In this document: positions 22,214 to 61,010 of the stretch, one piece after another
Numbering within the stretch: position 1 is the first letter of the stretch
How the letters are laid out: every line of letters begins with the position of its first letter
Origin: Actinomycetota bacterium
Lineage (GTDB): Bacteria; Actinomycetota; Geothermincolia; Geothermincolales; RBG-13-55-18
Length of the DNA: 61,010 bases
Reading direction: 5' to 3'
Assembly (NCBI GenBank): GCA_015711955.1
Contig: JACVJK010000004.1
Span: 1-61,010 of the forward strand
Position numbers and translations under genes: made by a program
The notes under the pieces: generated by a model
What the model saw: only the letters and a program-made list of their open reading frames with translations
Databases searched by the model: none
What the model was told of the DNA's origin: nothing

Positions 22214-23383
22214 TCAGTCCCTCTCGACGTTAACCTCCAGCACCGGTCCTTTTAAGCTCCAATGAGGGGTCGACGACGTGACACCGGAAACCACCTCGTA
22301 GTAGCCCTGCAAAAGGCCCACCAAAAGAAGATGCAAGGCCGGGTTGACCATGCGAAGGAACAGGCCTTCAGGGCCAACCCGGAACTCTTCCAGGTAACCC
22401 AACCCCCGCACGGCCAGCAGTCTCCTGAACTCCTCGAGGGTCCCTATGTCGTCGGGCGAGTAAAGACGTCCGCTCTTCACGAATAGCCGCTGTGCCTCCA
22501 CTATCGTTTGAGGTATTTCCTCCCCCAACTCCCGCTCCATCTCGGCGAAGATCGCTTCCAGGTATGCTGGACCTATCATGCAGAGGCGTCTTCCGGAAAG
22601 ACGATCAACGATGATGCCCTCATCGGGGTCCCAAGAGAACCAGGCTAACTCCTGGGGCCCGCCGCAGGAGGGACATGGCTCCAGGTTGTAACCCACTGGT
22701 TGATATGGGTATCTACGAGTTTTGAGTCGCTCCTGGAACTGAGGGGGGTGTTCAGAGGGAAAAACCCTGATCCTGACCAAGTCGTCACCTACCACCTGGT
22801 ATTCAACGTCATTGTCTCGGGAAGTGACCGCCTCCACCGCGCCGGTCATGTCACCGCACCACAAGGGTACTGAATACGGGTTATTGACCACTTGAGTGAG
22901 GTGATCGTCCTCCTGGTATTGGAACTTGTAGCTTTCCAGCTTGGGCTTCCCGTATCCCATGGCCACCGAGATGGCGTTGTTTGCCTGTATGAGAGGCTCC
23001 ACCGGGATCTCAAGTCGCCTCACTCCCTCTCTCACCTCCGGTGGAGTGATGCGTAAGACATAATCCCGAGTGGCCCTCCTTTTGGTCTCTATGACTATGC
23101 GTTCTATGGGGATGGCTAAAAGTTCCTCGATCTTGCGGAAAAGCAAGTCGAGGTTCTCCGTTTCCACGAGCACCATCCTGTGATCGAGATCCAAGCTCTG
23201 CACGGTTACCCCTCCGTCTAGCCATCGATGGTTGGCCACGAAGAGCAGGGGTGCACCGCAGGTGAGGCATCGCTCAAGCCCGAGGTCTTGGTCCAAGATA
23301 ACACCTCCCTCTACTTTATTCGGGGTGCGCTTGAACGCTTCTCGATGGTCTGGTCGAATGTTCGCGTCGGACTTACGCCACAT
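22214..23383 (-). CDS. Hypothetical protein with two tandem CxxC + V4R-like modules
   Basis: An internal duplication is visible. CLTCGAPLLFVANHRWLDGG...RMVLVETENLDLLFRKIEELL...NNPYSVPLWCGDMTGAVEAV aligns with CPSCGGPQELAWFSWDPDEG...RRLCMIGPAYLEAIFAEMEREL...VNPALHLLLVGLLQGYYEVV. A strong SD (AGGGAGGTG) precedes an internal TTG at 23296, which may be the true start. Confidence 0.6.
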   Translation of the reverse strand: MWRKSDANIRPDHREAFKRTPNKVEGGVILDQDLGLERCLTCGAPLLFVANHRWLDGGVTVQSLDLDHRMVLVETENLDLLFRKIEELLAIPIERIVIETKRRATRDYVLRITPPEVREGVRRLEIPVEPLIQANNAISVAMGYGKPKLESYKFQYQEDDHLTQVVNNPYSVPLWCGDMTGAVEAVTSRDNDVEYQVVGDDLVRIRVFPSEHPPQFQERLKTRRYPYQPVGYNLEPCPSCGGPQELAWFSWDPDEGIIVDRLSGRRLCMIGPAYLEAIFAEMERELGEEIPQTIVEAQRLFVKSGRLYSPDDIGTLEEFRRLLAVRGLGYLEEFRVGPEGLFLRMVNPALHLLLVGLLQGYYEVVSGVTSSTPHWSLKGPVLEVNVERD

Positions 23384-28699: not shown

Positions 28700-28784
28700 G
28701 GGTTTCATCCTCTCTCGTTTGTCGCCGTCATGGTCAGGAAACCCGGTACGGATGAAGGATAATCTTTCGTGGAGGTAGATAGTC

Positions 28785-29669
28785 ATGGAAGAGACGGGAA
28801 CCCTGAGGGTCAAGGCCGGTTTGGCCGAGATGCTCAAGGGCGGAGTGATCATGGATGTCACCACTCCCGAGCAGGCGATGATAGCCGAAGAGGCAGGAGC
28901 GGTGGCGGTGATGGCTTTGGAGAGGGTGCCGGCTGATATCCGGGCTGCGGGAGGCGTGGCACGCATGGCCGATCCCGAGATTATAGAAGCAATTATGGAA
29001 AAAGTTTCCATTCCTGTCATGGCCAAGGTGCGGATCGGCCACTTCGTAGAAGCCCAGATCCTGGAAGCCATAGGGGTGGATTATATAGACGAGAGCGAGG
29101 TCTTGACCCCGGCTGACGAGAGAAATCACATCAATAAGTGGGATTTCAAAGTACCCTTTGTATGCGGCGCCATCAACTTGGGAGAAGCCCTGCGACGGAT
29201 AGCCGAAGGTGCGGCCATGATCAGGACTAAAGGGGAAGCGGGCACCGGAAACGTGGTAGAGGCCGTCCGGCATATGCGCACCATACAGGGGGAGATAAAG
29301 AGGCTCACCGTGATGGAGGAAGAGGAGCTCATGGCGGCCGCCAAAGAGATGGGAGCACCTTATGAGTTGGTGCGCTGGGTGGCCGAGCACGGTAAGCTGC
29401 CGGTGGTCAATTTCTCTGCCGGGGGCATCGCCACGCCGGCCGATGCGGCTCTCATGATGCAGTTGGGGGCCGATGGTATCTTTGTGGGCTCGGGGATCTT
29501 CAAGTCGGAGGATCCTGTGGCCAGAGCCCGGGCTATCGTCAGGGCCACCACCCATTACGACGATCCCAAGATTCTTGCTGAGGTCTCCCGGGGTTTGGGG
29601 AGGGCCATGGCAGGACGGGACATTGCCGAGATAGGTAGAGAGAACCTCATACAATTCAGGGGTTGGTGA
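28785..29669 (+). CDS. pdxS: Pyridoxal 5'-phosphate synthase, lyase subunit
   Basis: The sequence [37 protein letters not shown] is highly conserved. Confidence 0.97.
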
Positions 29670-29781
29670 GGAATATAGCTTGTTTATGCCACCTATTGTC
29701 AACTGTAAAGCGAAGAGCTTCGAGAGAATGAAGATTGGGGACGCCGGAAAGGAAAGTCCAATCGCTTTGTAGGTGAAGTCC

Positions 29782-30483
29782 ATGGAACGGAGCAAAAAAC
29801 CGACGGTGGGAGTTCTGGCCCTGCAGGGGGCGGTTAGAGAGCATCTTCGCTCCCTGGCGGATTGTGGGGCTCGGGGGGTGGCGGTGAGGTATCCCTCCGA
29901 GCTCTCTTTATGCGACGGATTGATCATTCCTGGTGGCGAGAGCACCACCATCGGACGGCTCATGAGAGAATACGGTTTCATCGATGAGATCAAGCGCTTG
30001 GCCGGTGAAGGTATGCCCTTGTATGGCACTTGCGCTGGGCTCATACTCATGGCCAAGCGCCTTGTCGAGGGTGACCAACCCCTTCTCGGGCTCATGGACG
30101 TGACGGTGCGCCGGAACGCTTTCGGAAGACAGGTGGACAGCTTTGAAACCGATTTGCGGATCGAGGGAATCGAAGAGGAGGAACGCCCCTTTCGCTGCGT
30201 TTTCATCCGGGCCCCCTGGATCGAGGAAGTAGGATCCGAGGTAAGGGTGTTGGCAATCCATCGAGGAAAGGTGGTAGCGGCCTGTCAGAAAAACATGTTG
30301 GCCACCGCCTTTCATCCTGAGCTCACCCCTGATCTGCGGGTACATCGACTTTTTCTGGGGATGATCACCGAAGGAGAGCGGTTGTTGCCTTCAATGGAGA
30401 ACCCGTTGCTCGAGTCGGGAGAAAGAGATACGCGTAGTGTAAATGGCAGGGAAAAGGTGGAGGAACAGCGGGTGAAGAATTGA
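29782..30483 (+). CDS. pdxT: Pyridoxal 5'-phosphate synthase, glutaminase subunit, with a roughly 40-aa C-terminal extension
   Basis: Motifs VGVLALQGA, PGGESTT, GTCAGLILMA and FHPELT are present. Confidence 0.93.
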   Translation: MERSKKPTVGVLALQGAVREHLRSLADCGARGVAVRYPSELSLCDGLIIPGGESTTIGRLMREYGFIDEIKRLAGEGMPLYGTCAGLILMAKRLVEGDQPLLGLMDVTVRRNAFGRQVDSFETDLRIEGIEEEERPFRCVFIRAPWIEEVGSEVRVLAIHRGKVVAACQKNMLATAFHPELTPDLRVHRLFLGMITEGERLLPSMENPLLESGERDTRSVNGREKVEEQRVKN

Positions 30484-49314: not shown

Positions 49315-49704
49315 TTGTACAACGACATCGTCGTGGAGCATTTTCAGAACCCTCGTAACGTGGGGGAGATCGAGGACGCTGACGGTGTGGGGAAGGTGGG
49401 CAACCCAACCTGCGGCGACATGATGGAGGTCTATATAAAAGTAAAGGATGGCGTGTTGGTGGACGTGAAGTACAAGACCTTCGGGTGCGGTGCCGCAGTG
49501 GCATCGGGCAGCATAGGCACTGAGATGGTCAAAGGGAAGACCATCGAGGAAGCCTTGCGGTTGACCAGTGAAGATGTGGCGGAGGCCTTGGGCGGACTGC
49601 CGGCTACCAAGATGCACTGTTCTAATTTGGCCGCAGACGGCATAAGGGCGGCCATCGAGGACTATCTCCGGCGTCGTGAGAGCAAGGGGTCGGAGGGGTC
49701 CTGA
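49315..49704 (+). CDS. iscU: Fe-S cluster assembly scaffold, IscU/NifU N-terminal type
   Basis: The three scaffold cysteines lie in NPTCGD, FGCGAAVAS and KMHCS. Confidence 0.9.
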   Translation: MYNDIVVEHFQNPRNVGEIEDADGVGKVGNPTCGDMMEVYIKVKDGVLVDVKYKTFGCGAAVASGSIGTEMVKGKTIEEALRLTSEDVAEALGGLPATKMHCSNLAADGIRAAIEDYLRRRESKGSEGS

Positions 49705-50060
49705 TGGGTGGGGTGGCTGCCCTGGTTTGTGCCGTGTCCTTCGCCTTACTCATGCTGGCCGTTACTTTGGTTGTTTTGAAAATGGCCCGAACATTGAGTA
49801 TAACCAATGGCATCCTTAACGACCTCCGACGAGAGGTCATACCTTTGGTCCGCAAACTGCAGATCACCATGGACAGGGTGAACGGGGAGATGGAACACGT
49901 GGACAGGGCCTTGGATTCCTTAGAGGGTCTGGTCAGGCAAGTTAACTCCCTCACCAAAGTCACCCAGAGGGTGGTCACCTCCCCCATAGTCAGATTGTTC
50001 ACCCTGGGATTGGGGGCGTGGAGACCGGCGGATCGCGAAGCAAAAGACGAGGATCGCTGA
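49704..50060 (+). CDS. DUF948-like membrane-anchored coiled-coil protein
   Basis: An N-terminal TM is followed by a helical region. The small gene upstream of alaS is typical of Actinobacteria and Firmicutes. The start overlaps the iscU stop. Confidence 0.6.
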   Translation: MGGVAALVCAVSFALLMLAVTLVVLKMARTLSITNGILNDLRREVIPLVRKLQITMDRVNGEMEHVDRALDSLEGLVRQVNSLTKVTQRVVTSPIVRLFTLGLGAWRPADREAKDEDR

Positions 50061-50123
50061 TTCAGGCGCCCATATTAGCGTCTCAAGAGGCCTCATGGCA
50101 TTCCTGGGGATGAGGAGGAGCTG

Positions 50124-52763
50124 TTGAAAAGCGGAGAGATTCGAGAGGCTTTCCTTCGCTTTTTCGAGGAAAGAGGTCACCGGAGGGTGAAGAGCTCTTC
50201 CTTGGTACCTGACGACCCCACCCTTCTTTTGACCAATGCCGGGATGGTGCAGTTCAAACCTTACTTTCTCGGCACGGTCAAACCCGATTTCACCCGGGCC
50301 ACATCCTGTCAGAAGTGTGTTAGGACCACCGACATCGAGAAGGTGGGGAAAACGGCCCGCCACCTCACCTTCTTTGAGATGTTGGGCAACTTCAGTTTTG
50401 GTGACTATTACAAAGAAAAAGCCATACCTTGGGCCTGGGAGTTCCTCACTCAGGTCATGGGCCTAGACCCTTCTCGACTCTACTGTTCCGTTTTCCGAGA
50501 AGACGAGGAGGCCTACCTGATTTGGAGGGATGTGGTGGGGATTCCCGAGGACCGTATCGTCCGTCTGGGAGAGGAGGACAATTTCTGGGACATGGGGACC
50601 ACTGGCCCCTGCGGTCCCTGTTCCGAGATCATATATGACCAGGGGGAGGAATTTGGATGCGGCCGTCCAGATTGCCGAGTGGGCTGTGATTGCGACCGCT
50701 ATTTGGAGCTTTGGAACTTGGTGTTCATGCAATATAACCGAGACGAGAAGGGAGAACTACAACCTCTCCCCTCCAAGAACATAGACACGGGACTGGGGTT
50801 GGAGAGGATGTCTTCGGTGTTGCAGGGGGTCAAGACCAACTTCGAGACGGACACCATTTTCCCTATCATCGAGAAGTTGGTGGAGATATCCGGTGTGCCT
50901 TACGGGAGAGATCCCCAAGCTGACGTTTCCCTAAAGCTTGTGGCCGATCATTCCCGGGCCTTCACCTTCTTGGTCAGCGACGGTGTACTCCCCTCTAATG
51001 AGGAGCGTGGATACGTGTTGCGCAGGCTGATAAGGAGGGCGCTGAGACACGCGAGGTTGGTGGGCATAGAGCGTCCCTTTCTGGGGGAGATGGTGGACGC
51101 GGTGATGGAGACCATGGGAGAGGCTTACCCGGAATTGAGGGACAACCGCTCCTATATAAAGGCCATTGTGGAGAAAGAGGAGGAGAGATTCGCCCAGACG
51201 TTGAAAGTCGGACTGGCCTATTTTGAGGATGCCACGGCACGGGCTTTGCAGCGGGGGGACGGCACATTGAGTGGCGAGGACGCTTTCCACCTCCACGATA
51301 CGTTGGGATTCCCCCTGGAGTTGACCAAGGAGATGGCTTCCGAGCGGGGACTTGCGGTAGACATGGAGGGCTTCGAGAGGTTGATGGAGGAACAGCGGTT
51401 ACGGGCTCGGGAAGCCAGGGAAGAAAAAGGTTACCGAGAGGCGTGGGATGGTGTATATTCCCAGATCCTCAACGAGCACGGCCCCACTGACTTCACCGGG
51501 TATCAGACCCTCACCGACCGAGGGACGGTAGTGGCATTGGTTAGGGAGGGAAAAGTTGTTCCCCGCGCATCGGCTGGTGAGCAGGTGGAGGTTTTTTTGG
51601 ATCGCACTCCCTTTTACGGGGAAAAAGGGGGTCAGGTAGGAGATAAGGGCGTTTTGCTCTTTTCCAATGGTAGCGCCGTGGTCAGCGATGCGAGGTGTCC
51701 ATTGGAGGACCTGATAGCTCACGTAGTGCGAGTGGAAAAAGGGGTCCTCGAGGTGGGGCTTGAGGTGGAGGCGGTGGTGGACGCCGATAGGAGGTGGTCA
51801 ATTCGCCGAAATCATACCGCTACCCACCTGTTGCACTGGGCGCTCAGGGAGGTGTTGGGTGATCACGCCAAACAGGCGGGCTCTCTGGTGGACGATCGTC
51901 GTCTCCGGTTCGACTTTACTCATTTCCAAGCCATCACCGAGGAGGAAAGGGAACGTGTAGAGGAATTGGTGAACAGAAAGATTTTGGAAAACCAGCCAGT
52001 GCGGGCCTACATCACCACCTATGATTACGCCAAGGAGATCGGAGCGGTGGCGCTCTTTGGCGAGAAATACGGGGATTTCGTCAGGGTGGTCGAAGTGGGA
52101 GATGTTAGCCGAGAACTGTGTGGGGGAACGCACGTTCATCGCACGGGTGATATTGGACAATTCGTCCTTCTGAGCGAATCCGGTATCGGCGCTAATATGA
52201 GGAGGATAGAGGCGGTGACCGGTATGGAGGCTTGGAGGCACCGCCGGGAGGTGGAGGGTACGCTGCAGACCGTTTCCAGGATGCTCCGCACCGAGCCTTC
52301 GCGTTTGCCCGAGCGAATTGAACGCCTTTTGGAGAGGTTGAAAGAGCTGGAGAACGAGTTGAAGAGGAGAGAAAGCCGGGCAGTGGCAGAGTTGGCCCGT
52401 CAGGATGCTTCCTGGAGGGAGGAAAGCCTAGGCGATGGCAGGAAAGTGGCCCTGGCTCGAGTGGATGGGCTGGAGCCCAAGGAGCTGCGGGAGATGGCGG
52501 AAAACGCACTATCCACTAGAGGTGCCTGCGTGGTAGGTATAGCCTCGGTGAAAGGGGACAAGGCGAACTTAGTGGTGGCGGTACGTAAGGACCATGTGGA
52601 CAGGTTGAACGCGGTGGAGATAGTGAGAGAGGCGGCAGAAGCCCTGGGCGGGGGTGGTGGGGGGCGGCCGGATATGGCAGTGGGAGGAGGGTCGCGAGTA
52701 GAAGGAGTGAGTGAGGCCCTGGAAAAGGTGGCCCGTCGTTCAATAGACCTTTTGGAAGGCTAA
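50124..52763 (+). CDS. alaS: Alanine--tRNA ligase
   Basis: Motifs TNAGMVQFK, HLTFFEMLGNFSFGDYYK, WNLVFMQYN, the editing-site HTATHLL...CGGTH and the DHHA1 tail are present. Confidence 0.97.
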   Translation: MKSGEIREAFLRFFEERGHRRVKSSSLVPDDPTLLLTNAGMVQFKPYFLGTVKPDFTRATSCQKCVRTTDIEKVGKTARHLTFFEMLGNFSFGDYYKEKAIPWAWEFLTQVMGLDPSRLYCSVFREDEEAYLIWRDVVGIPEDRIVRLGEEDNFWDMGTTGPCGPCSEIIYDQGEEFGCGRPDCRVGCDCDRYLELWNLVFMQYNRDEKGELQPLPSKNIDTGLGLERMSSVLQGVKTNFETDTIFPIIEKLVEISGVPYGRDPQADVSLKLVADHSRAFTFLVSDGVLPSNEERGYVLRRLIRRALRHARLVGIERPFLGEMVDAVMETMGEAYPELRDNRSYIKAIVEKEEERFAQTLKVGLAYFEDATARALQRGDGTLSGEDAFHLHDTLGFPLELTKEMASERGLAVDMEGFERLMEEQRLRAREAREEKGYREAWDGVYSQILNEHGPTDFTGYQTLTDRGTVVALVREGKVVPRASAGEQVEVFLDRTPFYGEKGGQVGDKGVLLFSNGSAVVSDARCPLEDLIAHVVRVEKGVLEVGLEVEAVVDADRRWSIRRNHTATHLLHWALREVLGDHAKQAGSLVDDRRLRFDFTHFQAITEEERERVEELVNRKILENQPVRAYITTYDYAKEIGAVALFGEKYGDFVRVVEVGDVSRELCGGTHVHRTGDIGQFVLLSESGIGANMRRIEAVTGMEAWRHRREVEGTLQTVSRMLRTEPSRLPERIERLLERLKELENELKRRESRAVAELARQDASWREESLGDGRKVALARVDGLEPKELREMAENALSTRGACVVGIASVKGDKANLVVAVRKDHVDRLNAVEIVREAAEALGGGGGGRPDMAVGGGSRVEGVSEALEKVARRSIDLLEG

Positions 52764-52766
52764 AAA

Positions 52767-53249
52767 ATGCCACGAGTGCTGGGTCTTGATGTGGGAGACC
52801 GCCACATAGGAGTGGCGGTCTCCGATCCTTTGGGGCTAATCGCCACACCGAGGGAGACACTGGTGGGATATTCCCCTTCCGATTTAAAGGAATACGTCAT
52901 TCGCCTCCGCCAGGAAGGAGTGAGCGAAGTTGTGGTGGGTCTTCCCCTCACCCTCTCTGGGAAAGAGGGAAAGCAGGCAAAAAAGACCAGGGAATACGCC
53001 GAGGCCCTCAAAGAGATAGAGGGGATGGTGGTCATCCTCTGGGATGAGAGGCTGTCCTCCCGGGAGGCGGCGAAAAGACTTGAGGAAGCGAGGGGAAGGC
53101 CTGAGGAAGAAAGGATAGACGCTCAGGCTGCTGCGGTAATACTCCAATCGTACCTTGAAGCAAAGGCTGGCAAGAAAGACGCAGTAAAAAATGGAAAGAG
53201 CGAGAGGCAAGCGAGCCGTGAAGATCCTGAAAGAGTTGACCCACCATAG
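52767..53249 (+). CDS. ruvX: Putative pre-16S rRNA nuclease / Holliday junction resolvase-like RuvX (YqgF)
   Basis: Motifs LGLDVGDRHIGVAVSD and DERLSS are present. The gene lies 3 nt after alaS. Confidence 0.9.
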   Translation: MPRVLGLDVGDRHIGVAVSDPLGLIATPRETLVGYSPSDLKEYVIRLRQEGVSEVVVGLPLTLSGKEGKQAKKTREYAEALKEIEGMVVILWDERLSSREAAKRLEEARGRPEEERIDAQAAAVILQSYLEAKAGKKDAVKNGKSERQASREDPERVDPP

Positions 53250-54228
53250 GGCGAAAATCCTCCTCGTGTTCGCGTTCCTGGCGATGACGTTTTTTCTCGC
53301 CTACTTGATCAATCACTTATTTTTTCCTGATAAAAGCGGTGAAACCGTCCACATTTTCGTCGAAAAGGGAGAGGGGTTGGGTGCTATAGCGGTAAAGCTT
53401 AAGAAAGCGGGAGTGATACGTAGTTCGTTGCTCCTCCGCTTACATGCTTGGACCCGAGGCGGTGAAGGGGTAATATTGCCCGGACATTACCTGTTTGAAA
53501 GGGGCATGGGGTACAAGGAGGTTTTAGATCTTCTGGCCAGTGGGCCTAATTATCAAGTGAGGATAACGATTCCCGAGGGTCTTACCCTGAAGCAGACTGC
53601 TGAGAGGTTTGCCTCTGCCCTCGGTTTCTCGGCTGAGGATTTCCTGGCGGAATGTCACAGCCACAGACATACCACACCTTATTTGGGAGATCGCGCCGTG
53701 TCTTTAGAGGGTTTTCTCTTCCCCAAGACCTACGACTTTCCCCCGGACGTTACTCCCGGGGAGGTGGTGGAAGTGTTGTTGCGCCAATTCGAGAGGGAAG
53801 TGACGGATCTCGATTGGGATAGGGCGAAGGAACTAGGGCTTTCCCCCTACGAGGTGGTGATCGTGGCAAGCATGATAGAGAAGGAGGCCATGTTGGATCA
53901 TGAAAGGCCATTAGTGTCGGCGGTGATATACAATCGTCTTAGGTTAGGAATGCCGCTCCAGATTGACGCCACGGTACAGTATGCTCTCCCGCAATGGAAA
54001 CCTCGTTTGACCTATCGAGACCTTCAGGTGGATTCCCCCTATAACACCTATATACATAAAGGCCTTCCTCCTGGCCCCATATGCAACCCAGGAAAGGCCA
54101 GTTTGGTGGCAGCCCTCAACCCTGCCCAGGTGGACTACTTGTATTACGTGGCCAAAGGCGATGGCGGACATTTCTTCACCTCCGATTATCAAGAGTTCTT
54201 GGAGGCAAAGAGGAAATACCAACCTTGA
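53191..54228 (+). CDS. mltG: Endolytic murein transglycosylase MltG (YceG-like)
   Basis: An N-terminal TM, ASMIEKEA, YNTYIHKGLPPGPICNPG and YLYYVA are present. The start is uncertain, because every candidate overlaps the ruvX end. Confidence 0.88.
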   Translation: MERARGKRAVKILKELTHHRAKILLVFAFLAMTFFLAYLINHLFFPDKSGETVHIFVEKGEGLGAIAVKLKKAGVIRSSLLLRLHAWTRGGEGVILPGHYLFERGMGYKEVLDLLASGPNYQVRITIPEGLTLKQTAERFASALGFSAEDFLAECHSHRHTTPYLGDRAVSLEGFLFPKTYDFPPDVTPGEVVEVLLRQFEREVTDLDWDRAKELGLSPYEVVIVASMIEKEAMLDHERPLVSAVIYNRLRLGMPLQIDATVQYALPQWKPRLTYRDLQVDSPYNTYIHKGLPPGPICNPGKASLVAALNPAQVDYLYYVAKGDGGHFFTSDYQEFLEAKRKYQP

Positions 54229-54381: not shown

Positions 54382-54876
54382 ATGGACGGGAACGCTGAAC
54401 GTGTGCAGGCCAAGGCAAGGTCTTTGGCGGATATCCTATCGGTGATTGGACTGGCGGCTGAGGGGGCGATCGGCCCTTCGGCCCCTCGTGTAATGTACTT
54501 CGCCGCCAAGGACTTGGGAACAAAGGAAGGGATCCGGCTCGATCATACGGACGATTTGGAGCAGGCTCTACGGTGGGTCTTGGATATGGAAAAAGGCTCC
54601 TGTTCGGTGTTTTTTTGGAAGGAACCGGGGAAGGAAGATTACTGGAACGAAGAGGGCAAATATGTTTACCTCCGATTCCTGATCAGTGAGTGCCCAGTCA
54701 GGGATGCCTGTTTGGTCTGTGGGGTTCCACTGGGGGGTACCCACTGCCAGGCGACACATGGATATTGGGCAGGCCTTCTGGAAAGCGTATTCTCCCGAAA
54801 AGTAGACCTCTTCACCGAACGCGCAGGATTCGGTAGTTGCCTTATAAGGCTCAGGACCGCGGCGGGATCGGCGTGA
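54382..54876 (+). CDS. V4R-domain (hydrocarbon/small-molecule-binding) protein
   Basis: The C-terminal V4R-like signature is ISECPVRDACLVCGVPLGGTHCQATHGYWAGLLESVF...ERAGFGSCLIRL. The SD is GGAGAGAGGAAG. Confidence 0.65.
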   Translation: MDGNAERVQAKARSLADILSVIGLAAEGAIGPSAPRVMYFAAKDLGTKEGIRLDHTDDLEQALRWVLDMEKGSCSVFFWKEPGKEDYWNEEGKYVYLRFLISECPVRDACLVCGVPLGGTHCQATHGYWAGLLESVFSRKVDLFTERAGFGSCLIRLRTAAGSA

Positions 54877-54891: not shown

Positions 54892-55800
54892 ATGGGCATG
54901 AACAGATTGGCATTAGTACAACTCGGTTCGTGCGGTGGTTGCCAATTGTCCTTGTTGGACTTGGGCGAACGTTTTCTCGATTTAATGGAAACTTATTCCA
55001 TCGAAAGCTTTCCCATGATAAGGGAGGGCGAAGATGCCCCGGAGGCGGATTTAACGCTGGTGGAAGGCACCGTGAGGCATGCCAATCATCTCGCCCTGTT
55101 GAGGAGGGTAAGAGAACGGGGTGGCTCCCTAGTCGCCTTGGGTTCGTGTGCCGTTTTTGGTGGCGTGCAAGGCCTAAGCGATGCCACGGCGGGGGGAAGG
55201 TGGAAGGAGTCCGTGACCCGTGCCAACGCAGGAGAGCACATTCCCCTCTTCACCCGCAGGGTCCTACCGTTGGACGCTTACGTGGCCGTGGATTTCAGGC
55301 TGCCGGGTTGCCCTGTCCCCATGGAGTTGTTGTGGTCTTTTCTCGGGAAGGTGGCCGATGGGTCCTTTACCCCAAGGGACTCTGCCACCGTGTGTGCGGA
55401 GTGCATGCTCAGGGGCGGGAGTACTCGGGGAGGCCCCTTTAGGTTCACCGAGAAGAAGAACGAAAGTGGCACGTGCTTTTTAGAGCAGGGGTTTTTGTGC
55501 ATGGGCCCCACGACCCGCGACGGATGCGGTGCTTATTGCCCGATATCTGGTTATCCCTGTCGGGGATGCAGGGGGCCAACGGATGGCGTGATGTGGTTTC
55601 AACCCTTGGATCCCCGGAGAGAGTCATGGCGAAGGCTGTCTCGTTCCACTGGCCGAAGGGAACATGAGGTCGCGGAGTTCTATCGCGATCCAGCCCATGC
55701 TTTTTTCACGTTCTGTTTGGGGGAACCCCTTTTCAGAAACAGGAGATGGGGAGGCACCCCTGACCTGATACGGAGAATCGAGACCGGTGACTTTAAATGA
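54892..55800 (+). CDS. [NiFe]-hydrogenase small subunit-like protein (group-3 MvhG/FrhG/HoxY-type, NuoB fold) with Cys for three Fe-S clusters
   Basis: The proximal-cluster Cys lie in GSCGGCQ, GSCAVFGG and LPGCPVP. Eight further Cys follow (CAEC ... CFLEQGFLCMGPTTRDGCGAYCPISGYPCRGCRGP). Confidence 0.75.
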   Translation: MGMNRLALVQLGSCGGCQLSLLDLGERFLDLMETYSIESFPMIREGEDAPEADLTLVEGTVRHANHLALLRRVRERGGSLVALGSCAVFGGVQGLSDATAGGRWKESVTRANAGEHIPLFTRRVLPLDAYVAVDFRLPGCPVPMELLWSFLGKVADGSFTPRDSATVCAECMLRGGSTRGGPFRFTEKKNESGTCFLEQGFLCMGPTTRDGCGAYCPISGYPCRGCRGPTDGVMWFQPLDPRRESWRRLSRSTGRREHEVAEFYRDPAHAFFTFCLGEPLFRNRRWGGTPDLIRRIETGDFK

Positions 55801-55850: not shown

Positions 55851-57158
55851 ATGCCTGAATACCGGCTGAACAGGGTCTTCGGAGAGGCCTCGCTGATATG
55901 GGAAGTGGACGAGAGCGGTAGGCCCAGTGTTGTCCTTCGGGCTGATGGTTACCGGGGGTTCGAGGTCATATGCCAGGGAGCCCATGGGGAGATCCTGCCA
56001 GATCTACTATCGCGACGCTGCGGCGTGGATTCCCTTTACCATAGAATTGGTGCTTGCATCGCTTTGGAGAGGGCCTTGAAGGTTCAGTTACCCGATGTCG
56101 CCTGGAAGATTAGGGAACTGATCCTTGCCTGCCAGCTTTTCCGCCGCCATTCCCTCACCATGATTCTCCATGTGCTGCCCGACCTGTTCTTCCCCGCCTC
56201 CGATCTAAGCGTGAGGAACTTGGTGGGCCTTTTCCGGGTGGACAGAGATGTGGCCAGGAGAATGATGTCCTTGGCCGCATTGGGAGAGAGGATTTTGAGA
56301 GAATTATGTTTACGATCGGTGCATCCGGTTATCGTCGTTCCTGGAGGCATCACCGGCATCCCCCGAGAGGAATCCATCCAGGCCTTGAAAGGCCTGATAA
56401 CGGATGCCATGGAGCTGGTCAAGGAGACCTCCCGCCTGGTAAAAATGCTCCTTCGCCGCAACGAAGAACTGGTGATGAGTCTGAGCATTCCCGCTGACAT
56501 TGAGATGGCGGCCATGACCCCACCCTTTGGGCCCTCTTGGGAGGGCCTCAGGGTTTTGGGGCTACCGGAGGGAACCAACGTAGATCGTGCGGAGGAGCTG
56601 ATCAAAAGGGCAGAAAGATTTAATTTGCCCCACACCATGTTGGAGGCATGCCGACTCAAGGACCAGGTCGGAAAGGTGTCGACTGGTCCTCTTGCTAGGG
56701 TGAACTCAGGTGGTGGTCAAGGGAGTGAGGTGGCGGAGGCAGAATTGGAGGAACTTAAAAGGACGTGGGGCTTTCCCTTCAAGGGGATCCTCCTATCCCA
56801 TGCCATCCGCATGACAGAGATGATGATGGCCCTGGAAAGGATCCACCGACTCCTCTCGAGGTTCGATGAGTGGAAAAAGGAGGAGAGCAGGAACGAATTG
56901 GCCCCGGGGAGTGGTCGTGGTGCGGTCGCCCTGGAGGGGGCAGAAGGCATCCACCTATATGAAGTGGCGGTTGAGGATGGCTACATTTCCTCTGTAAGTT
57001 ACCATTCCCCCTTACAGTGGAATATCACGGCCATGCTGGGAATCCTTCAGGAAGAGGCCCTCATGGCGGGAGAGGAAATAGGGGGCCCCCGCTGGCAGGC
57101 AAAATCGGGTTTGAGCGTCAGGTCATTCGCCCCCTGTTTCTTCTGTGCTTCGGGATGA
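55851..57158 (+). CDS. [NiFe]-hydrogenase large subunit-like protein with a degenerate active-site signature
   Basis: Overall group-3-like landmarks are present (RGFE, HSLTMILHVLPD, HPVIVVPGG). However, the N-terminus reads RVFGE instead of RxEGH, L1 reads RRCGVDSLYH instead of RxCGxCxxxH, and the C-terminus reads APCFFCASG-stop instead of DPCxxCxxH. ATG 55851 follows a GAGGTG SD. The alternative start is TTG 55836. Confidence 0.65.
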   Translation: MPEYRLNRVFGEASLIWEVDESGRPSVVLRADGYRGFEVICQGAHGEILPDLLSRRCGVDSLYHRIGACIALERALKVQLPDVAWKIRELILACQLFRRHSLTMILHVLPDLFFPASDLSVRNLVGLFRVDRDVARRMMSLAALGERILRELCLRSVHPVIVVPGGITGIPREESIQALKGLITDAMELVKETSRLVKMLLRRNEELVMSLSIPADIEMAAMTPPFGPSWEGLRVLGLPEGTNVDRAEELIKRAERFNLPHTMLEACRLKDQVGKVSTGPLARVNSGGGQGSEVAEAELEELKRTWGFPFKGILLSHAIRMTEMMMALERIHRLLSRFDEWKKEESRNELAPGSGRGAVALEGAEGIHLYEVAVEDGYISSVSYHSPLQWNITAMLGILQEEALMAGEEIGGPRWQAKSGLSVRSFAPCFFCASG

Positions 57159-57161
57159 GGT

Positions 57162-57458
57162 ATGAGCGCAGAGGGAGTGGATAGAGTGGATAGAGATAAA
57201 ATAGAGCTGGATTTGGGCAGGTGTATGGCCTGCGGTGAATGCCTTGATGTCTGTCCCCGATCCTCGGACACGGATTACCCGGTGTTCCGCAGGACGGAGA
57301 TGGGAATGCCCGAGCTGCTTTACCCAGAGAGCTGCATATCCTGCATGGAATGCGCCGTTCGGTGCAGGGCCATGGCCCTCCGCGTCGAGGGCCTTTACCT
57401 CCCACCCTTCAACTTAAAGGACCCCCAGATCACACGAAAGATCTATTCCCTTTATTGA
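57162..57458 (+). CDS. 2x[4Fe-4S] ferredoxin
   Basis: Two cluster motifs are present, CMACGECLDVCP and CISCMECAVRC. The gene lies 3 nt after the large-subunit stop. Confidence 0.8.
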   Translation: MSAEGVDRVDRDKIELDLGRCMACGECLDVCPRSSDTDYPVFRRTEMGMPELLYPESCISCMECAVRCRAMALRVEGLYLPPFNLKDPQITRKIYSLY

Positions 57459-57649
57459 TTCTTGGGTCGTGAGCCTCAGGGCGGGCAGGACGAAGAGAGG
57501 AACTTCCCAGGTTAGGCGTCCTGGTCTAAATAAAAGGTAGACTATGACGATACAGTAATAGGCGCGAGCCTTGTTCGCAGTCGGTTGCCTCCTCGACGCA
57601 ACGTTTGCTGTGGATGAAGATAACGGGAATGGGCGGGAGGTGGTAGGTT

Positions 57650-58003
57650 TTGCCCGATCTCAGGAGAGTTCTGGAGGAGTTGGTGGCCACCGGGGCAGTT
57701 AAAGCCTGCCTTGTGGTGGGAAGGGACGGTTTCATCATCGAGGCCGTGGGTAGCGACCCCTCTCAACTCGAGGCAGTGGGGGCTATAGCTCCCAGCTCTT
57801 TGGGGGCGGCCGAGGTGATAGGTTTGGAATTGGCCCAAGGGCCCATGAGCCAGGCCATGTTCGAATTCGAGAAGGGGGCTATCCTCATGAGCGCAGTGGG
57901 CCAAGACGCCATACTGGTGAGCATCCTCCCCTCCAGTGCGAACCTCGGAAAAGCCCGATACGACATTAGAAAATTCCTTCCGGCCATCGAGAAGGCCCTG
58001 TGA
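57650..58003 (+). CDS. Roadblock/LC7 (MglB-like) domain protein, paralogue 1
   Basis: The 117-aa protein has a Roadblock-type pattern (VKACLVVGRDGFIIEAVG ... AILMSAVGQDAILVSILPSSANLG). The TTG start follows GGGAGGTGG. Confidence 0.75.
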   Translation: MPDLRRVLEELVATGAVKACLVVGRDGFIIEAVGSDPSQLEAVGAIAPSSLGAAEVIGLELAQGPMSQAMFEFEKGAILMSAVGQDAILVSILPSSANLGKARYDIRKFLPAIEKAL

Positions 58004-58038
58004 GGCCGCCGCTGCCTTGATACAGAGGTGGTGCTAAA

Positions 58039-58413
58039 GTGGCAACCGAGAGGTTGGAGAGGATGAACTCGGTACTCAGGGAGCTGAGGGCCAACTTGCC
58101 CGAGGTGGAGGCGGCCGTACTCATAAGCAGCGATGCCATGGCCTTGGCGTCAGACATATCCGATGATTCCGATGAGGAGATGATAAGTGCCCTCTCCAGT
58201 TCAGTGCTGAATATGGGAGAGAGGGCATCTCGAGACCTAAAAAGAGGGGTGTTGGAGCAGGTTTTCATAAAAGGCGACCAGGGCTCCCTTTTGCTATTGC
58301 ACTGTGGCCCCCATGCCCTTCTCTCTTTGATGGTAAGACCCGAGGCCAAGTTGGGAGTGGTTCTTATGGAGGCCAAAAGAACAGCCGAGGAATTGTCTAG
58401 ACTGTTCGAGTAA
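58039..58413 (+). CDS. Roadblock/LC7 (MglB-like) domain protein, paralogue 2
   Basis: The 124-aa protein reads VEAAVLISSDAMALAS ... LLLLHCGPHALLSLMVRPEAKLG. It aligns clearly with paralogue 3. Confidence 0.75.
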   Translation: MATERLERMNSVLRELRANLPEVEAAVLISSDAMALASDISDDSDEEMISALSSSVLNMGERASRDLKRGVLEQVFIKGDQGSLLLLHCGPHALLSLMVRPEAKLGVVLMEAKRTAEELSRLFE

Positions 58414-58470
58414 TACGCGGTCTAGGATCCCGTCGTCTCGTGAAATTGAGTCGTAAAGGAGGTACGGTCC

Positions 58471-58869
58471 TTGTCGGAGTCACGGGAGGAAAGACTCAGG
58501 AAGGCCCTACAAGAATTGATATCCAGATCCGCCGAAGTGGACGCGGCGGCAGTGGTGAGCATGGACGGATTGGTGATGGCCTCTGTCCTTCCCAATACCA
58601 TGGAGGAAGATCGACTGGGAGCCATGTCGGCAGCCCTGCTCAGTCTGGGCGAAAGGACCTCCGAAGAGTTGGGAAGGGGGGAACTCTCCCAGGTGTTCGT
58701 GGAAGGAAAGGATGGGTACGTATTCCTCATGGCTGCTGGCCCGGACGCAGTCTTGACGGCCCTGGTGCGGAAAGGTAGCAAACTCGGCCTGGTCCTGTAT
58801 GACGTCAAAGGAGCGGCCAAGAAGATCGCGGAGATAATAGCCTCCGAATTCAAGATTGAGTACGAATAA
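58471..58869 (+). CDS. Roadblock/LC7 (MglB-like) domain protein, paralogue 3
   Basis: The 132-aa protein reads VDAAAVVSMDGLVMAS ... VFLMAAGPDAVLTALVRKGSKLG. The TTG start follows an AAGGAGG SD. Confidence 0.75.
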   Translation: MSESREERLRKALQELISRSAEVDAAAVVSMDGLVMASVLPNTMEEDRLGAMSAALLSLGERTSEELGRGELSQVFVEGKDGYVFLMAAGPDAVLTALVRKGSKLGLVLYDVKGAAKKIAEIIASEFKIEYE

Positions 58870-59028: not shown

Positions 59029-61010
59029 ATGGCTCTCAAGGGAAGTTTGAGGGATTTCAGCCTCCCGGACCTATTCCAGCTGCTGAATTTCAGCAAAAAG
59101 AACGGCACCCTTAACCTCGTGAGGGGAAATTCTCGAGGCTATATATGCTTCCGCAACGGGGAGGTGTTTTTCGCCACCACCAACTGGAAGCGACAATCCC
59201 TCGGCATGAAGTTGGTGGGGGCCGGACTCATTACCAAGGAACAACTCAACGAGGCCTTGGAGCTGCAGCGTTCTGAGGCCAAAGGTCAGAGGTTGGGACA
59301 GATCTTGGTGCGTCTCGGGTACATCACCCAGGAACAGCTGGAAGTTTTCGTGGAAGAACAGATCCAGGACGCCGTCTTCGAGATGTTGAGATGGACGGAT
59401 GGGGAATTCGAATTCCAACCTGGCGTGGTCTTTCCAGAGGAGGACATTGGCCTCTCCATAAGCACCGAGGAGCTGATAATGGAGGGGTCGCGGCGACTGG
59501 ACGAATGGAACCGCATTGAGAAGAAGATACCTCACTTAGACGTGGTCTTGCGTATGAAATCGATGCAAGGAATGGAGGCGGCCCAGATAAGCCTGACCCC
59601 GGAGGAGTGGATGGTGCTCACCTATGTGGACGGCGAGAGGACGGTCAGACAGATAGTGGAGCTGACCGGCATGAGCACCCTGCAGACCTGTAAGATCCTC
59701 TATGGCTTGATGAGCTCTGGCCTTTTGGAAAACGTGGCTCCAGAGGGGGTAGGACTTGAGTCGGAGAGAAGACTGGAGGAACTGGCGAAACAGCTGGAAA
59801 AGACGGAGGATGAATCAATTGTTGGAGTTCTACAGGGGGATGTGGCGGCTGGGGAAGCAAACGCGCTGTTCACCGATAGGGAGATGGGCCTTACCGAAAG
59901 GGTAGAAAGTCTCCTGAGGGAGCTCGAAAGGCCCTCAAAGGATAGGGGCTCCGGGGAAATGAACGGCGAAGAGATCCCTACCTCCAGGGCTGAGGATGAG
60001 GGGATATTGAGGTGGATTGAGATAAGGGACATACAAGACAAAATCCCCCAGGCCTCTTCCTCTGGTGGTGAGGGAGGGGGAATCGTGACCGCACCCAAAG
60101 AACCGCCGATGTCCTCTGCCCAAAAACCCCCACTGACCGAGGAGGCGGCTTGTGAGGAGAGCGTCGACCGGGCAGGCGAAGAGATCTGGGTGTCTTCCGA
60201 CGAGCCTGTGGAGATCGTGGTGGAAGAGGAAGATGAAGAGATCGTGTCGGTGGAGGAAGTAGACTCAGAAACTAAAGCCGGGATTGGGAGGGAAGAATCC
60301 TCGTCCGTTTCCTGCGAAGTCCAAGGTGGGGTTACGGAGGCTGAGGCGGATTCTATCGCCGTGGAGCGGGGGGACCAAGTTGAGATGGTCCCCGAAGAGA
60401 TGGAAAGGAGGAGGGAAAAGACCGAAGAGCTTATCCGGAAAAGATTCGAGGAGGAGAGGAGAAGGCTAGAGGAGCTCAAGCGGAGGACATTGGCAGAGAC
60501 TCTGGAAGCAACTTCGGTGGTAAACGTCAGTAGGCCCGTGAAGGACAGACCTCAAGATGAGGAACTGGCGGAAACGGTTCAGACGAGGGAATCTGAGATT
60601 TCAGCACCGCATGCAATCGCTGACAGTAGGCCCCCACATGAAGGGGATCTGCTGCACGAAAGCGAGATGGCAAGAAGGGCTAAAATTTCGTATTTGGCAA
60701 AGAAGTACGGAACCAAATGGGAGGAATGGGGCCGTGTCGTTGGCGAGGAAAAACCGCAAGAGGATAGTGCAGCGGGCGACGAGCTTTTAGCAAAGACGGA
60801 AATTGTATCGGCAGCGGATGTTCTTTCCGAAGAAAAGGAAAGAACGGTTCCCTTCCTCGTTTCTTCCCCCGAGGTCCTGGAGTCGGTGATGCTCGAGGAC
60901 CTCAGGGCACCGGAGGAAAGGGTCCCCGAGGAATCCGCCCTGGAGCTCCTGGAAAGGCAGCAAGGAGAGGCTCCGGCTCCTCCTCCCCCCTCCCCCGAGG
61001 TCCTGGAGTC
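59029..61010 (+). CDS. PATAN/DUF4388-domain protein with MshEN-like motifs and a long acidic tail (3'-partial, runs off the window)
   Basis: I translated this frame by hand and found it open from ATG 59029 to the window end (660 codons), which is probably why it is absent from the ORF track. The N-terminus [28 protein letters not shown] is the DUF4388 signature. The minus-strand ORFs 59071-59535 and 59700-60479 are its shadows. Confidence 0.8.

Follow-up and report, generated by a model that had tools for sequence, protein, structure and literature searches.

A degenerate hydrogenase large subunit

The DNA analysed here is a stretch of 61,010 nucleotides (referred to here as the window) from contig JACVJK010000004.1 of an Actinomycetota bacterium of the Geothermincolales lineage (assembly GCA_015711955.1). 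Towards its 3′ end lies an open reading frame (ORF) that encodes a homologue of the large subunit of [NiFe] hydrogenases in which residues of the Ni–Fe site and its surroundings have been replaced. The gene and the motifs that set it apart are as follows (positions in the window, + strand):

55851..57158, +: degenerate [NiFe]-hydrogenase large-subunit homologue, 435 amino acids (aa); based on homology, an AlphaFold2 (AF2) model, Foldseek and the ratio of non-synonymous to synonymous substitution rates (dN/dS, omega)
55872..55886, +: RVFGE in place of RxEGH, with Phe10 at the position of the proton-gate Glu (HMMER and MAFFT alignments)
56013..56042, +: RRCGVDSLYH in place of the L1 motif RxCGxCxxxH, with Asp60 (GAT) at the second (bridging) Cys (HMMER and MAFFT alignments)
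56934..56954, +: EGAEGIH in place of the L4 motif EAPRGxxxH, with Glu365 at the position of the canopy Arg (HMMER and MAFFT alignments)
57129..57158, +: APCFFCASG-stop in place of DPCxxCxxH plus extension; Cys429 and Cys432 are kept, and the Asp, the His and the extension are lost (alignments, stop position)

The 435 codons run from ATG 55851, which has GAGGTG ahead of it, to a TGA stop at 57156-57158. TTG 55836 was considered as an alternative start and rejected, as homologues begin at the equivalent of ATG 55851 and GAGGTG precedes that ATG. At the other end of the gene, the stop and the ATG of the following ferredoxin gene are in frame with a single codon between them (TGA GGT ATG, 57156-57164), and read-through would fuse the two proteins. 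The shared frame is probably a coincidence, since the frames differ in the orthologous loci L002 and L006. Read-through or selenocysteine insertion at this TGA was rejected for the same reason, and all family members stop after Gly.

What kind of protein does this gene encode? It is a full-length Mvh-like (group 3) [NiFe]-hydrogenase large-subunit homologue, with a similarity far beyond chance. Pfam NiFeSe_Hases (PF00374) matches it with an E-value of 2e-12, covering only the N-terminal 67 positions of the profile, and phmmer against the PDB returns 9sfi_g (9e-29) and MvhA (5odc_F, 3e-27, over the full length). The AF2 model has a predicted local distance difference test score (pLDDT) of 86.4 and a predicted template modelling score (pTM) of 0.89. 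Foldseek aligns this model to MvhA 5odc_F with a template modelling (TM) score of 0.91, followed by the HydABCSL, Hox and SHI large subunits; 4ue3, 6syo and 6gam, which we take to be variant structures of E. coli hydrogenases, also occur among the matches. The NCBIfam model VhuA recognises the protein with an E-value of 3e-34, yet with 118 bits against a cut-off of 800, and the scores for the remaining NCBIfam hydrogenase models are likewise far under their cut-offs. Annotation pipelines name this protein 'F420-non-reducing hydrogenase large subunit'.

Replacements at the Ni–Fe site

How much of the active site is left? The motif columns were read from the HMMER alignment to MvhA and from MAFFT alignments with 18 and with 153 homologues, all of which agree. 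The original prediction, made from the letters alone, had matched three short strings of this protein to hydrogenase motifs, and its registration is right: RVFGEA aligns with RVEGHG, RRCGVDSLYH with the L1 motif of MvhA (prICGICqvaHh), and APCFFCAS-end with DPCLSCAT(H). The coordinates given there for the second and third strings, 56013-56042 and 57129-57158, are exact. As claimed, the second L1 Cys is replaced by Asp60, which occupies the same column in the HMMER and both MAFFT alignments with no Cys there; Phe10 stands in the column of the absent proton-gate Glu; and APCFFCASG is followed directly by TGA, with no C-terminal His and no extension. Only three of the four Ni–Fe cysteines are left. 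The length of the tail after the C-terminal motif is 0 in the window protein as against 22-28 aa in canonical relatives.

The alignments add two losses to those of the original prediction. The Asp of the DPC motif is Ala427, and the Arg of the L4 motif APRG is Glu365 (EGAEG). We take the Arg of EAPRG to be the 'canopy' arginine above the Ni–Fe site and the Asp of DPC to be its salt-bridge partner, going by work on E. coli Hyd-1. In E. coli Hyd-1 and Hyd-2, replacing any one of the proton-gate Glu, the canopy Arg, its partner Asp or the terminal His reportedly abolishes most of the activity. Besides the three cysteines, the L1 His64 and Glu73 are retained.

Conservation in basal Actinomycetota

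Is this gene simply decaying? The large subunit is under purifying selection and is not decaying: the unsaturated pair L002/L004 (dS 0.12) has a dN/dS of 0.134 and other pairs have 0.12-0.19, values on which a pseudogene was rejected. Among 5.8 billion proteins, a word-indexed search turned up no more than three close relatives (56-64% identity), to which a genome scan added two metagenome-assembled genomes, one from Candidatus Geothermincolales and one from an unclassified member of the Actinomycetota. All close relatives, six family members at 56-64% identity, keep RVFG[ED]A, RRCGVDS[LV]YH, EGAEG and APCF[FY]CA[SGA]G-stop. The L1 block L49-R65 is invariant within this family, and the L1 motif with Asp is kept in six family members and in the more distant orthologue P0021, which is just 36% identical.

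Intermediate relatives came from an exhaustive HMMER search with the family profile against 1.84 billion representatives, and they are orthologues in the same synteny. In this orthologous clade, which belongs to basal Actinomycetota (Geothermincolales-like), the Glu of RxEGH is absent from all members (F, Y, C, A or R instead), as is the Asp of DPC (A, N, C or I instead), and no member has a C-terminal extension. The canopy Arg is lost in all except P0033, with Glu in its place in four of six lineages. The Ni–Fe ligand set varies: it is CDCC in the window family and P0021, CCCC in P0022, P0025 and P0033, and CCHD in P0026, which has lost both C-terminal Cys. Where ligands have been replaced, the changes are two-nucleotide changes to Asp (GAT) or His (CAC) only, never to Ser, Ala or Gly. 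When 11-residue windows are ranked by their conservation in the clade, four segments of the former active site (54-64, 156-166, 360-370 and 423-433) come within the top twelve.

The large subunit evolves faster than the alanyl-tRNA synthetase (AlaRS) encoded nearby, with identities of 64, 36, 39 and 27% where AlaRS has 83, 61, 59 and 51%, and the four proteins of the hydrogenase module (the large and small subunits, a ferredoxin and a V4R-like protein) evolve together at this higher pace. Neighbour-joining recovers the degenerate clade as monophyletic in 54 of 60 bootstraps. The same tree puts it with distant outgroups and leaves its position relative to canonical enzymes unsettled; this placement is probably long-branch attraction, so no sister group can be claimed from it.

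Four group-3-like large subunits outside the syntenic clade (P0083, P0086, P0131 and P0146; loci L016 and L017) also have degenerate Ni–Fe ligands, for example RICGGSSFSH/NPCIPDSTH and RISANSSISY/NPDFCEATH, on short contigs without readable context. These outsiders suggest that loss of the Ni–Fe site may have occurred several times.

Electron-relay partners

The large subunit is flanked by three genes that complete the module:

54382..54876, +: V4R-like protein (referred to here as U162), 164 aa, the first gene of the module (sub-threshold Pfam matches, names of homologues)
54892..55800, +: hydrogenase small-subunit homologue (MvhG-like) with 12 Cys for three Fe–S clusters (Pfam, NCBIfam, phmmer)
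57162..57458, +: ferredoxin, 98 aa, with two CxxCxxCxxxC motifs for 2x[4Fe-4S] (Pfam Fer4 families)

The small subunit matches Pfam Oxidored_q6 (2e-22) and VhuG (1e-45), and NuoB with just 16.8 bits. As the original prediction had it, all 12 Fe–S cysteines are kept, each in register with MvhG (5odc_E; phmmer 8.5e-46). They are also present in every full-length orthologue, including that of P0026. In the contig of the closest relative (L001:4508-5428) the small-subunit call is 44 residues short and lacks the N-terminal CxxC of the proximal cluster, with a 144-bp gap after U162, which may reflect a frameshift, a mis-called start or a fault of the assembly. The ferredoxin keeps eight of eight Cys across orthologues, and the conserved Cys of U162 are likewise kept.

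U162 is present in all orthologous clusters, and a homologue lies upstream of the hydrogenase in canonical relatives as well. Its Cys104, Arg107, Cys122 and Cys153 are invariant and His147 is nearly so. The Pfam matches are all sub-threshold (V4R at E 0.031 in one member, DUF6144 at 1e-3, ATC_hydrolase at 4e-4, and DUF2507), a profile search against PDB sequences gave no significant match, and the AF2 model, built from four sequences only, has a pLDDT of 37. Homologues are named in their sources 'hydrocarbon binding protein (contains V4R domain)'. At 90% identity the family falls into at least 154 clusters, and it occurs in Methanobacterium, Methanothermobacter, Methanoculleus, Altiarchaeales, and Thor- and Lokiarchaeota.

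A signalling cluster at a fixed locus

Downstream of the ferredoxin, the window continues with genes of another kind:

57650..58003, +: Roadblock/LC7 protein 1, 117 aa (Pfam Robl_LC7, 4.5e-13; omega ~0.02)
58039..58413, +: Roadblock/LC7 protein 2, 124 aa (Pfam Robl_LC7, 9e-16)
58471..58869, +: Roadblock/LC7 protein 3, 132 aa (Pfam Robl_LC7, 1.3e-19; omega 0.003-0.012)
59029..61010, +: N-terminal part of a giant PATAN/DUF4388 protein that runs off the window (Pfam DUF4388, 2.4e-38)

The PATAN protein has a long acidic, Glu-rich low-complexity region after its N-terminal domain, and in orthologues it is 1223-1347 aa long. Beyond the point where the window ends, this gene is followed in the orthologous loci L006 and L008-L010 by one for a CvnD/MglA-like small GTPase of 177 aa (Pfam ATP_bind_1, Ras and Arf). 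The full cluster of nine to ten genes thus reads U162 (160-164 aa), small subunit, large subunit, ferredoxin, three Roadblock/LC7 proteins, PATAN/DUF4388 and small GTPase, and this order was seen in every locus long enough to show it (the window, L001, L002, L004, L006-L010 and L012).

The three tandem Roadblock/LC7 paralogues (57650-58869) are far more constrained than the adjoining hydrogenase-like genes. The Roadblock proteins and the N-terminus of the PATAN protein are 92-98% identical in loci where AlaRS is at 83% (97% for Roadblock protein 1, 95% for the PATAN/DUF4388 N-terminal domain), with omega values of 0.003-0.025. A spacer of 191 bp separates the ferredoxin from the first Roadblock gene (57459-57649; 176-264 bp in orthologous loci), and may contain an internal promoter or a regulatory element. 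A consensus promoter and terminator scan found sites no more frequently than in shuffled sequence.

In the orthologous loci the cluster is preceded by nifU, DUF948, alaS, ruvX and mltG and followed by aroE, pilB and pilT. The upstream block (nifU/iscU, DUF948, alaS, ruvX and mltG; 49315-54228 in the window) is syntenic in all of them, which marks the cluster as a stable part of this lineage's chromosome and not as an island. The original prediction had seen no hydrogenase maturation genes, and a comparison of ~55 window ORFs with Pfam bears this out, with no match to a Hyp or maturation endopeptidase family; none was called within ~10 kb in the orthologous loci either. The cluster contains no histidine kinase and no membrane subunits. 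The rest of the window is housekeeping (rpsB, tsf, frr, dxr, ispG, proS, ruvABC, queA, tgt, secDF, relA, hisS, aspS, and the nifU, alaS, ruvX and mltG already mentioned). Two long ORFs on the − strand, at 22214-23383 (389 aa) and 28734-30206 (490 aa), have no Pfam match at E 1e-5.

Canonical relatives with the same accessory genes

Is the company of Roadblock and V4R-like proteins peculiar to the degenerate clade? The best-scoring canonical match, P0024, lies in an operon of a U162 homologue (blastp for U162 1e-16 to 1e-22), small subunit, large subunit and ferredoxin. With the closest canonical sequences as seeds, a scan of metagenomes yielded 80 loci, many on truncated contigs, over which local hidden Markov models (HMMs) built from the window cluster were run. 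A V4R-like and/or Roadblock neighbour accompanies a canonical group-3 hydrogenase in 34 of the 80 (23 with both, six with U162 only, five with Roadblock only), and Pfam confirms Robl_LC7 in genes downstream of canonical hydrogenases. These 34 loci belong to unrelated organisms, with Methanobacterium sp. ERen5 and an archaeal contig among them, so the Roadblock coupling does not depend on the shared ancestry of the degenerate clade. Almost all of their large subunits are canonical, with RIEGHA, RICGICxxxH, EAPRG and DPCxSCATH followed by ~25 aa.

Canonical group-3 [NiFe] hydrogenases with small ferredoxin, V4R-like and Roadblock/LC7 genes are found in the metagenomic loci L019-L070 and in L098; the latter belongs to the complete genome of Methanobacterium sp. 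ERen5 (CP099988.1, L098:9738-14403), where the order is ferredoxin, V4R-like, small and large subunit. No PATAN or GTPase gene was detected beside canonical versions with narrow HMMs, a possible exception being a PATAN-like N-terminal fragment after the ferredoxin in L015. The literature searched (full text; coverage incomplete, so that a prior description is possible) contains no description of a hydrogenase–Roadblock link or of such a protein.

Comparison with known systems

MvhAG, the methyl-viologen-reducing, Hdr-associated hydrogenase of group 3c, is the best structural match for both subunits, and by sequence MvhA comes second to 9sfi_g for the large subunit. The small-large-ferredoxin order of the window recalls mvhGAB, and both systems have a three-cluster, 12-Cys small subunit. 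Where MvhAG has a second L1 Cys, a Glu in RxEGH, an Arg in APRG, both Asp and His in DPCxxCxxH and an extension, the window protein has none of these. Neither in the window nor in the orthologous loci was a gene for MvhD or HdrABC found; the V4R-like protein takes the place of MvhD at the head of the operon. As a catalytic member of group 3c the window protein fails: fold and homology agree with membership, whereas the L1 motif, the C-terminal motif, the Glu and Arg, the extension, the hyp genes (window and flanks), a score above the cut-off and MvhD/HdrABC are all absent. The small subunit, judged from its sequence, has what defines the MvhG type, namely an Oxidored_q6 domain and Cys ligands for predicted proximal, medial and distal clusters.

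The canonical V4R/Roadblock-associated group-3 hydrogenases, which are the best-scoring canonical relatives, share with the window the small ferredoxin and the order U162 homologue, small subunit, large subunit, then Roadblock. They differ in keeping RIEGH, RICGICxxxH, EAPRG and DPCxSCATH with a ~25-aa extension.

Regulatory hydrogenases (group 2b; HoxBC of Cupriavidus, HupUV) have four Cys, bind Ni–Fe, signal through the kinases HoxJ/HupT and lack the extension. The likeness lies in a hydrogenase heterodimer as a putative signal input and in a large subunit without extension. The window protein differs in its group-3 affinity, its three Cys plus Asp, its second-sphere losses, its Roadblock/PATAN/GTPase neighbours and the absence of a histidine kinase. 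NuoD/NuoB of complex I, Mbx, Fpo and Ehr descend from group 4, have lost the four Cys and belong to ion-pumping membrane complexes. They set a precedent for losing Ni–Fe while the proximal cluster is kept and the cavity re-used, whereas the window protein belongs to group 3, is soluble as far as gene context tells, retains three Cys and has an Asp for the fourth, is paired with a small subunit that keeps its three clusters, and has signalling genes around it.

On the signalling side, the MglA/MglB polarity module and the conservons CvnA-D encode a Roadblock/LC7 protein (MglB, CvnB) beside a Ras-like GTPase, and PATAN domains occur in regulators of type-IV pili and phototaxis. The window cluster resembles them in pairing Roadblock genes with a Ras-superfamily GTPase, and in orthologues pilB and pilT adjoin it. 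It differs in having three Roadblock paralogues and a giant PATAN partner; neither the sensor kinase CvnA nor CvnC (DUF742) was called in the orthologous loci, where the PATAN/DUF4388 protein is found instead. No report of a hydrogenase-like Fe–S sensor for MglA/MglB or conservons was found in the literature searched, whose coverage was incomplete.

What could the complex do?

The original prediction had left two possibilities, a non-canonical metal site or a non-catalytic role as sensor or scaffold. This view gains support from the clade-wide losses, the purifying selection, the invariant Fe–S ligands and the fixed signalling neighbours, and no active homologue with the same substitutions has come to light. 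Asp or His at the changed ligands and the conserved pocket segments favour a site that was presumably retained in altered form over an empty scaffold. Our preferred reading, to which we give a probability of about 0.5, is that the ORF encodes a hydrogenase-derived pseudo-enzyme, a putative Fe–S redox sensor or transducer with a re-tooled pocket that would feed a Roadblock/GTPase switch. The clade-wide loss of second-sphere residues (with the Arg kept in P0033), the variable ligands and the missing maturation genes in these loci together make a strong argument against H2 catalysis. Purifying selection, the conserved pocket, the Asp/His replacements and the intact five-cluster relay make an equally strong case against decay and point to a module that still handles electrons or a ligand. 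A sensor is the most economical reading because the Roadblock association spans distant lineages and because the constraint on the Roadblock, PATAN and GTPase proteins of the clade is extreme.

How might such a sensor work? The complex would report the reduction state of its Fe–S chain, in equilibrium with the ferredoxin or low-potential pool of the cell. A second input could be the occupancy of the re-tooled pocket (Cys57, Asp60, Cys429, Cys432 and Glu365), which may now be a site for a harder, probably mononuclear metal or for a ligand. The signal would pass to the Roadblock proteins, which, like MglB/CvnB, could act as platforms of the GTPase-activating protein (GAP) or guanine-nucleotide exchange factor (GEF) type for the small GTPase. 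The GTPase and the PATAN protein might then control polarity or type-IV-pilus output, given pilB and pilT downstream in orthologues. The ancestor may have been a true H2-oxidising or H2-sensing enzyme with Roadblock partners, of which this lineage would have lost the H2 input and kept the redox relay.

Several points weigh against this proposal. The putative link to the GTPase rests on gene order, interrupted by 191 bp ahead of the first Roadblock gene, and U162 matches V4R only below threshold. As canonical relatives have Roadblock genes and no detected PATAN or GTPase, Roadblock could be a structural hydrogenase subunit. Loss of the extension alone is not diagnostic, since regulatory and some group-4 hydrogenases likewise lack one. 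Finally, the two-nucleotide changes to Asp/His in a highly conserved pocket mean that a metal cofactor, conceivably Ni–Fe, may persist.

Could the pocket serve chemistry of another kind? The protein might be an oxidoreductase for a substrate other than H2, with the five-cluster relay feeding the remodelled pocket and the Roadblock proteins being mere neighbours or structural subunits. The precedent would be complex I, in which a Ni–Fe cavity became a quinone site beside cluster N2. Conservation of the whole Fe–S relay and of the pocket-lining segments speaks for such an enzyme, as do ligand replacements confined to Asp or His, the Glu that supplants the canopy Arg in most lineages, and a V4R-like, presumably small-molecule-binding, protein that is always there. 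We nevertheless regard it as unlikely, although the most credible of the alternatives: a ligand set that differs among orthologues (CDCC, CCCC and CCHD) is unusual for a conserved catalytic centre, the large subunit outpaces AlaRS (64 against 83% and 36 against 61% identity), and the cluster has no candidate substrate-pathway genes, its neighbours being signalling and housekeeping genes.

The same variable ligand set, and a protein that changes faster than its neighbours, would also suit a large subunit that only stabilises the small one, whether as a metal-free scaffold of purely structural role or as a decaying remnant, its former ligand positions being functionless. This is decidedly improbable, as omega for the large subunit is ~0.13-0.18, the L1 block does not vary within the family, the segments of the former active site are highly conserved with replacements that avoid Ser, Ala and Gly, and the fold is predicted with high confidence. 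Least probable of all is a functional H2-activating or H2-sensing [NiFe] enzyme, with Asp60 for the bridging Cys, matured without proteolysis like regulatory hydrogenases and signalling H2 to the GTPase switch: three of four Cys, His64 and Glu73 are retained, the Asp is shared with the distant P0021, the closest canonical relatives with the same accessory genes are true hydrogenases by motif and extension-less hydrogenases are known, but four elements are gone together (Glu to Phe, canopy Arg to Glu, salt-bridging Asp to Ala, and the terminal His), such residues are those whose single loss is said to cripple Hyd-1 and Hyd-2, the orthologue P0026 is without both C-terminal Cys and none of the loci has hyp genes.

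Beyond the redox sensor proposed for this clade, a wider generalisation can be put forward tentatively, with more doubt than conviction: a hydrogenase-type Fe–S complex might be the sensory input of a prokaryotic Roadblock/GTPase/PATAN switch, coupling H2 or redox state to polarity or type-IV-pilus behaviour. Methanogens and other anaerobes would have H2-reactive versions, and here a site of three Cys and one Asp (two Cys, His and Asp elsewhere) would serve a non-H2 signal.

Implications

Reconstructions of basal Actinomycetota list 'hydrogenases' among energy-conserving systems (for example PMC12917137). It would be a mistake to assign the present gene to H2 metabolism; its product is more probably a redox sensor. 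If this is true, the clade would show, for a soluble protein of group 3, the kind of conversion that turned group-4 hydrogenases into complex I-type modules, caught here at an intermediate stage, with ligand positions swapped to Asp or His rather than erased. The association of group-3 [NiFe] hydrogenases with V4R-like and Roadblock/LC7 proteins is widespread and apparently undescribed, and it extends to a cultivated Methanobacterium. It makes testable the idea that prokaryotic Roadblock/GTPase switches may take redox or H2 input.

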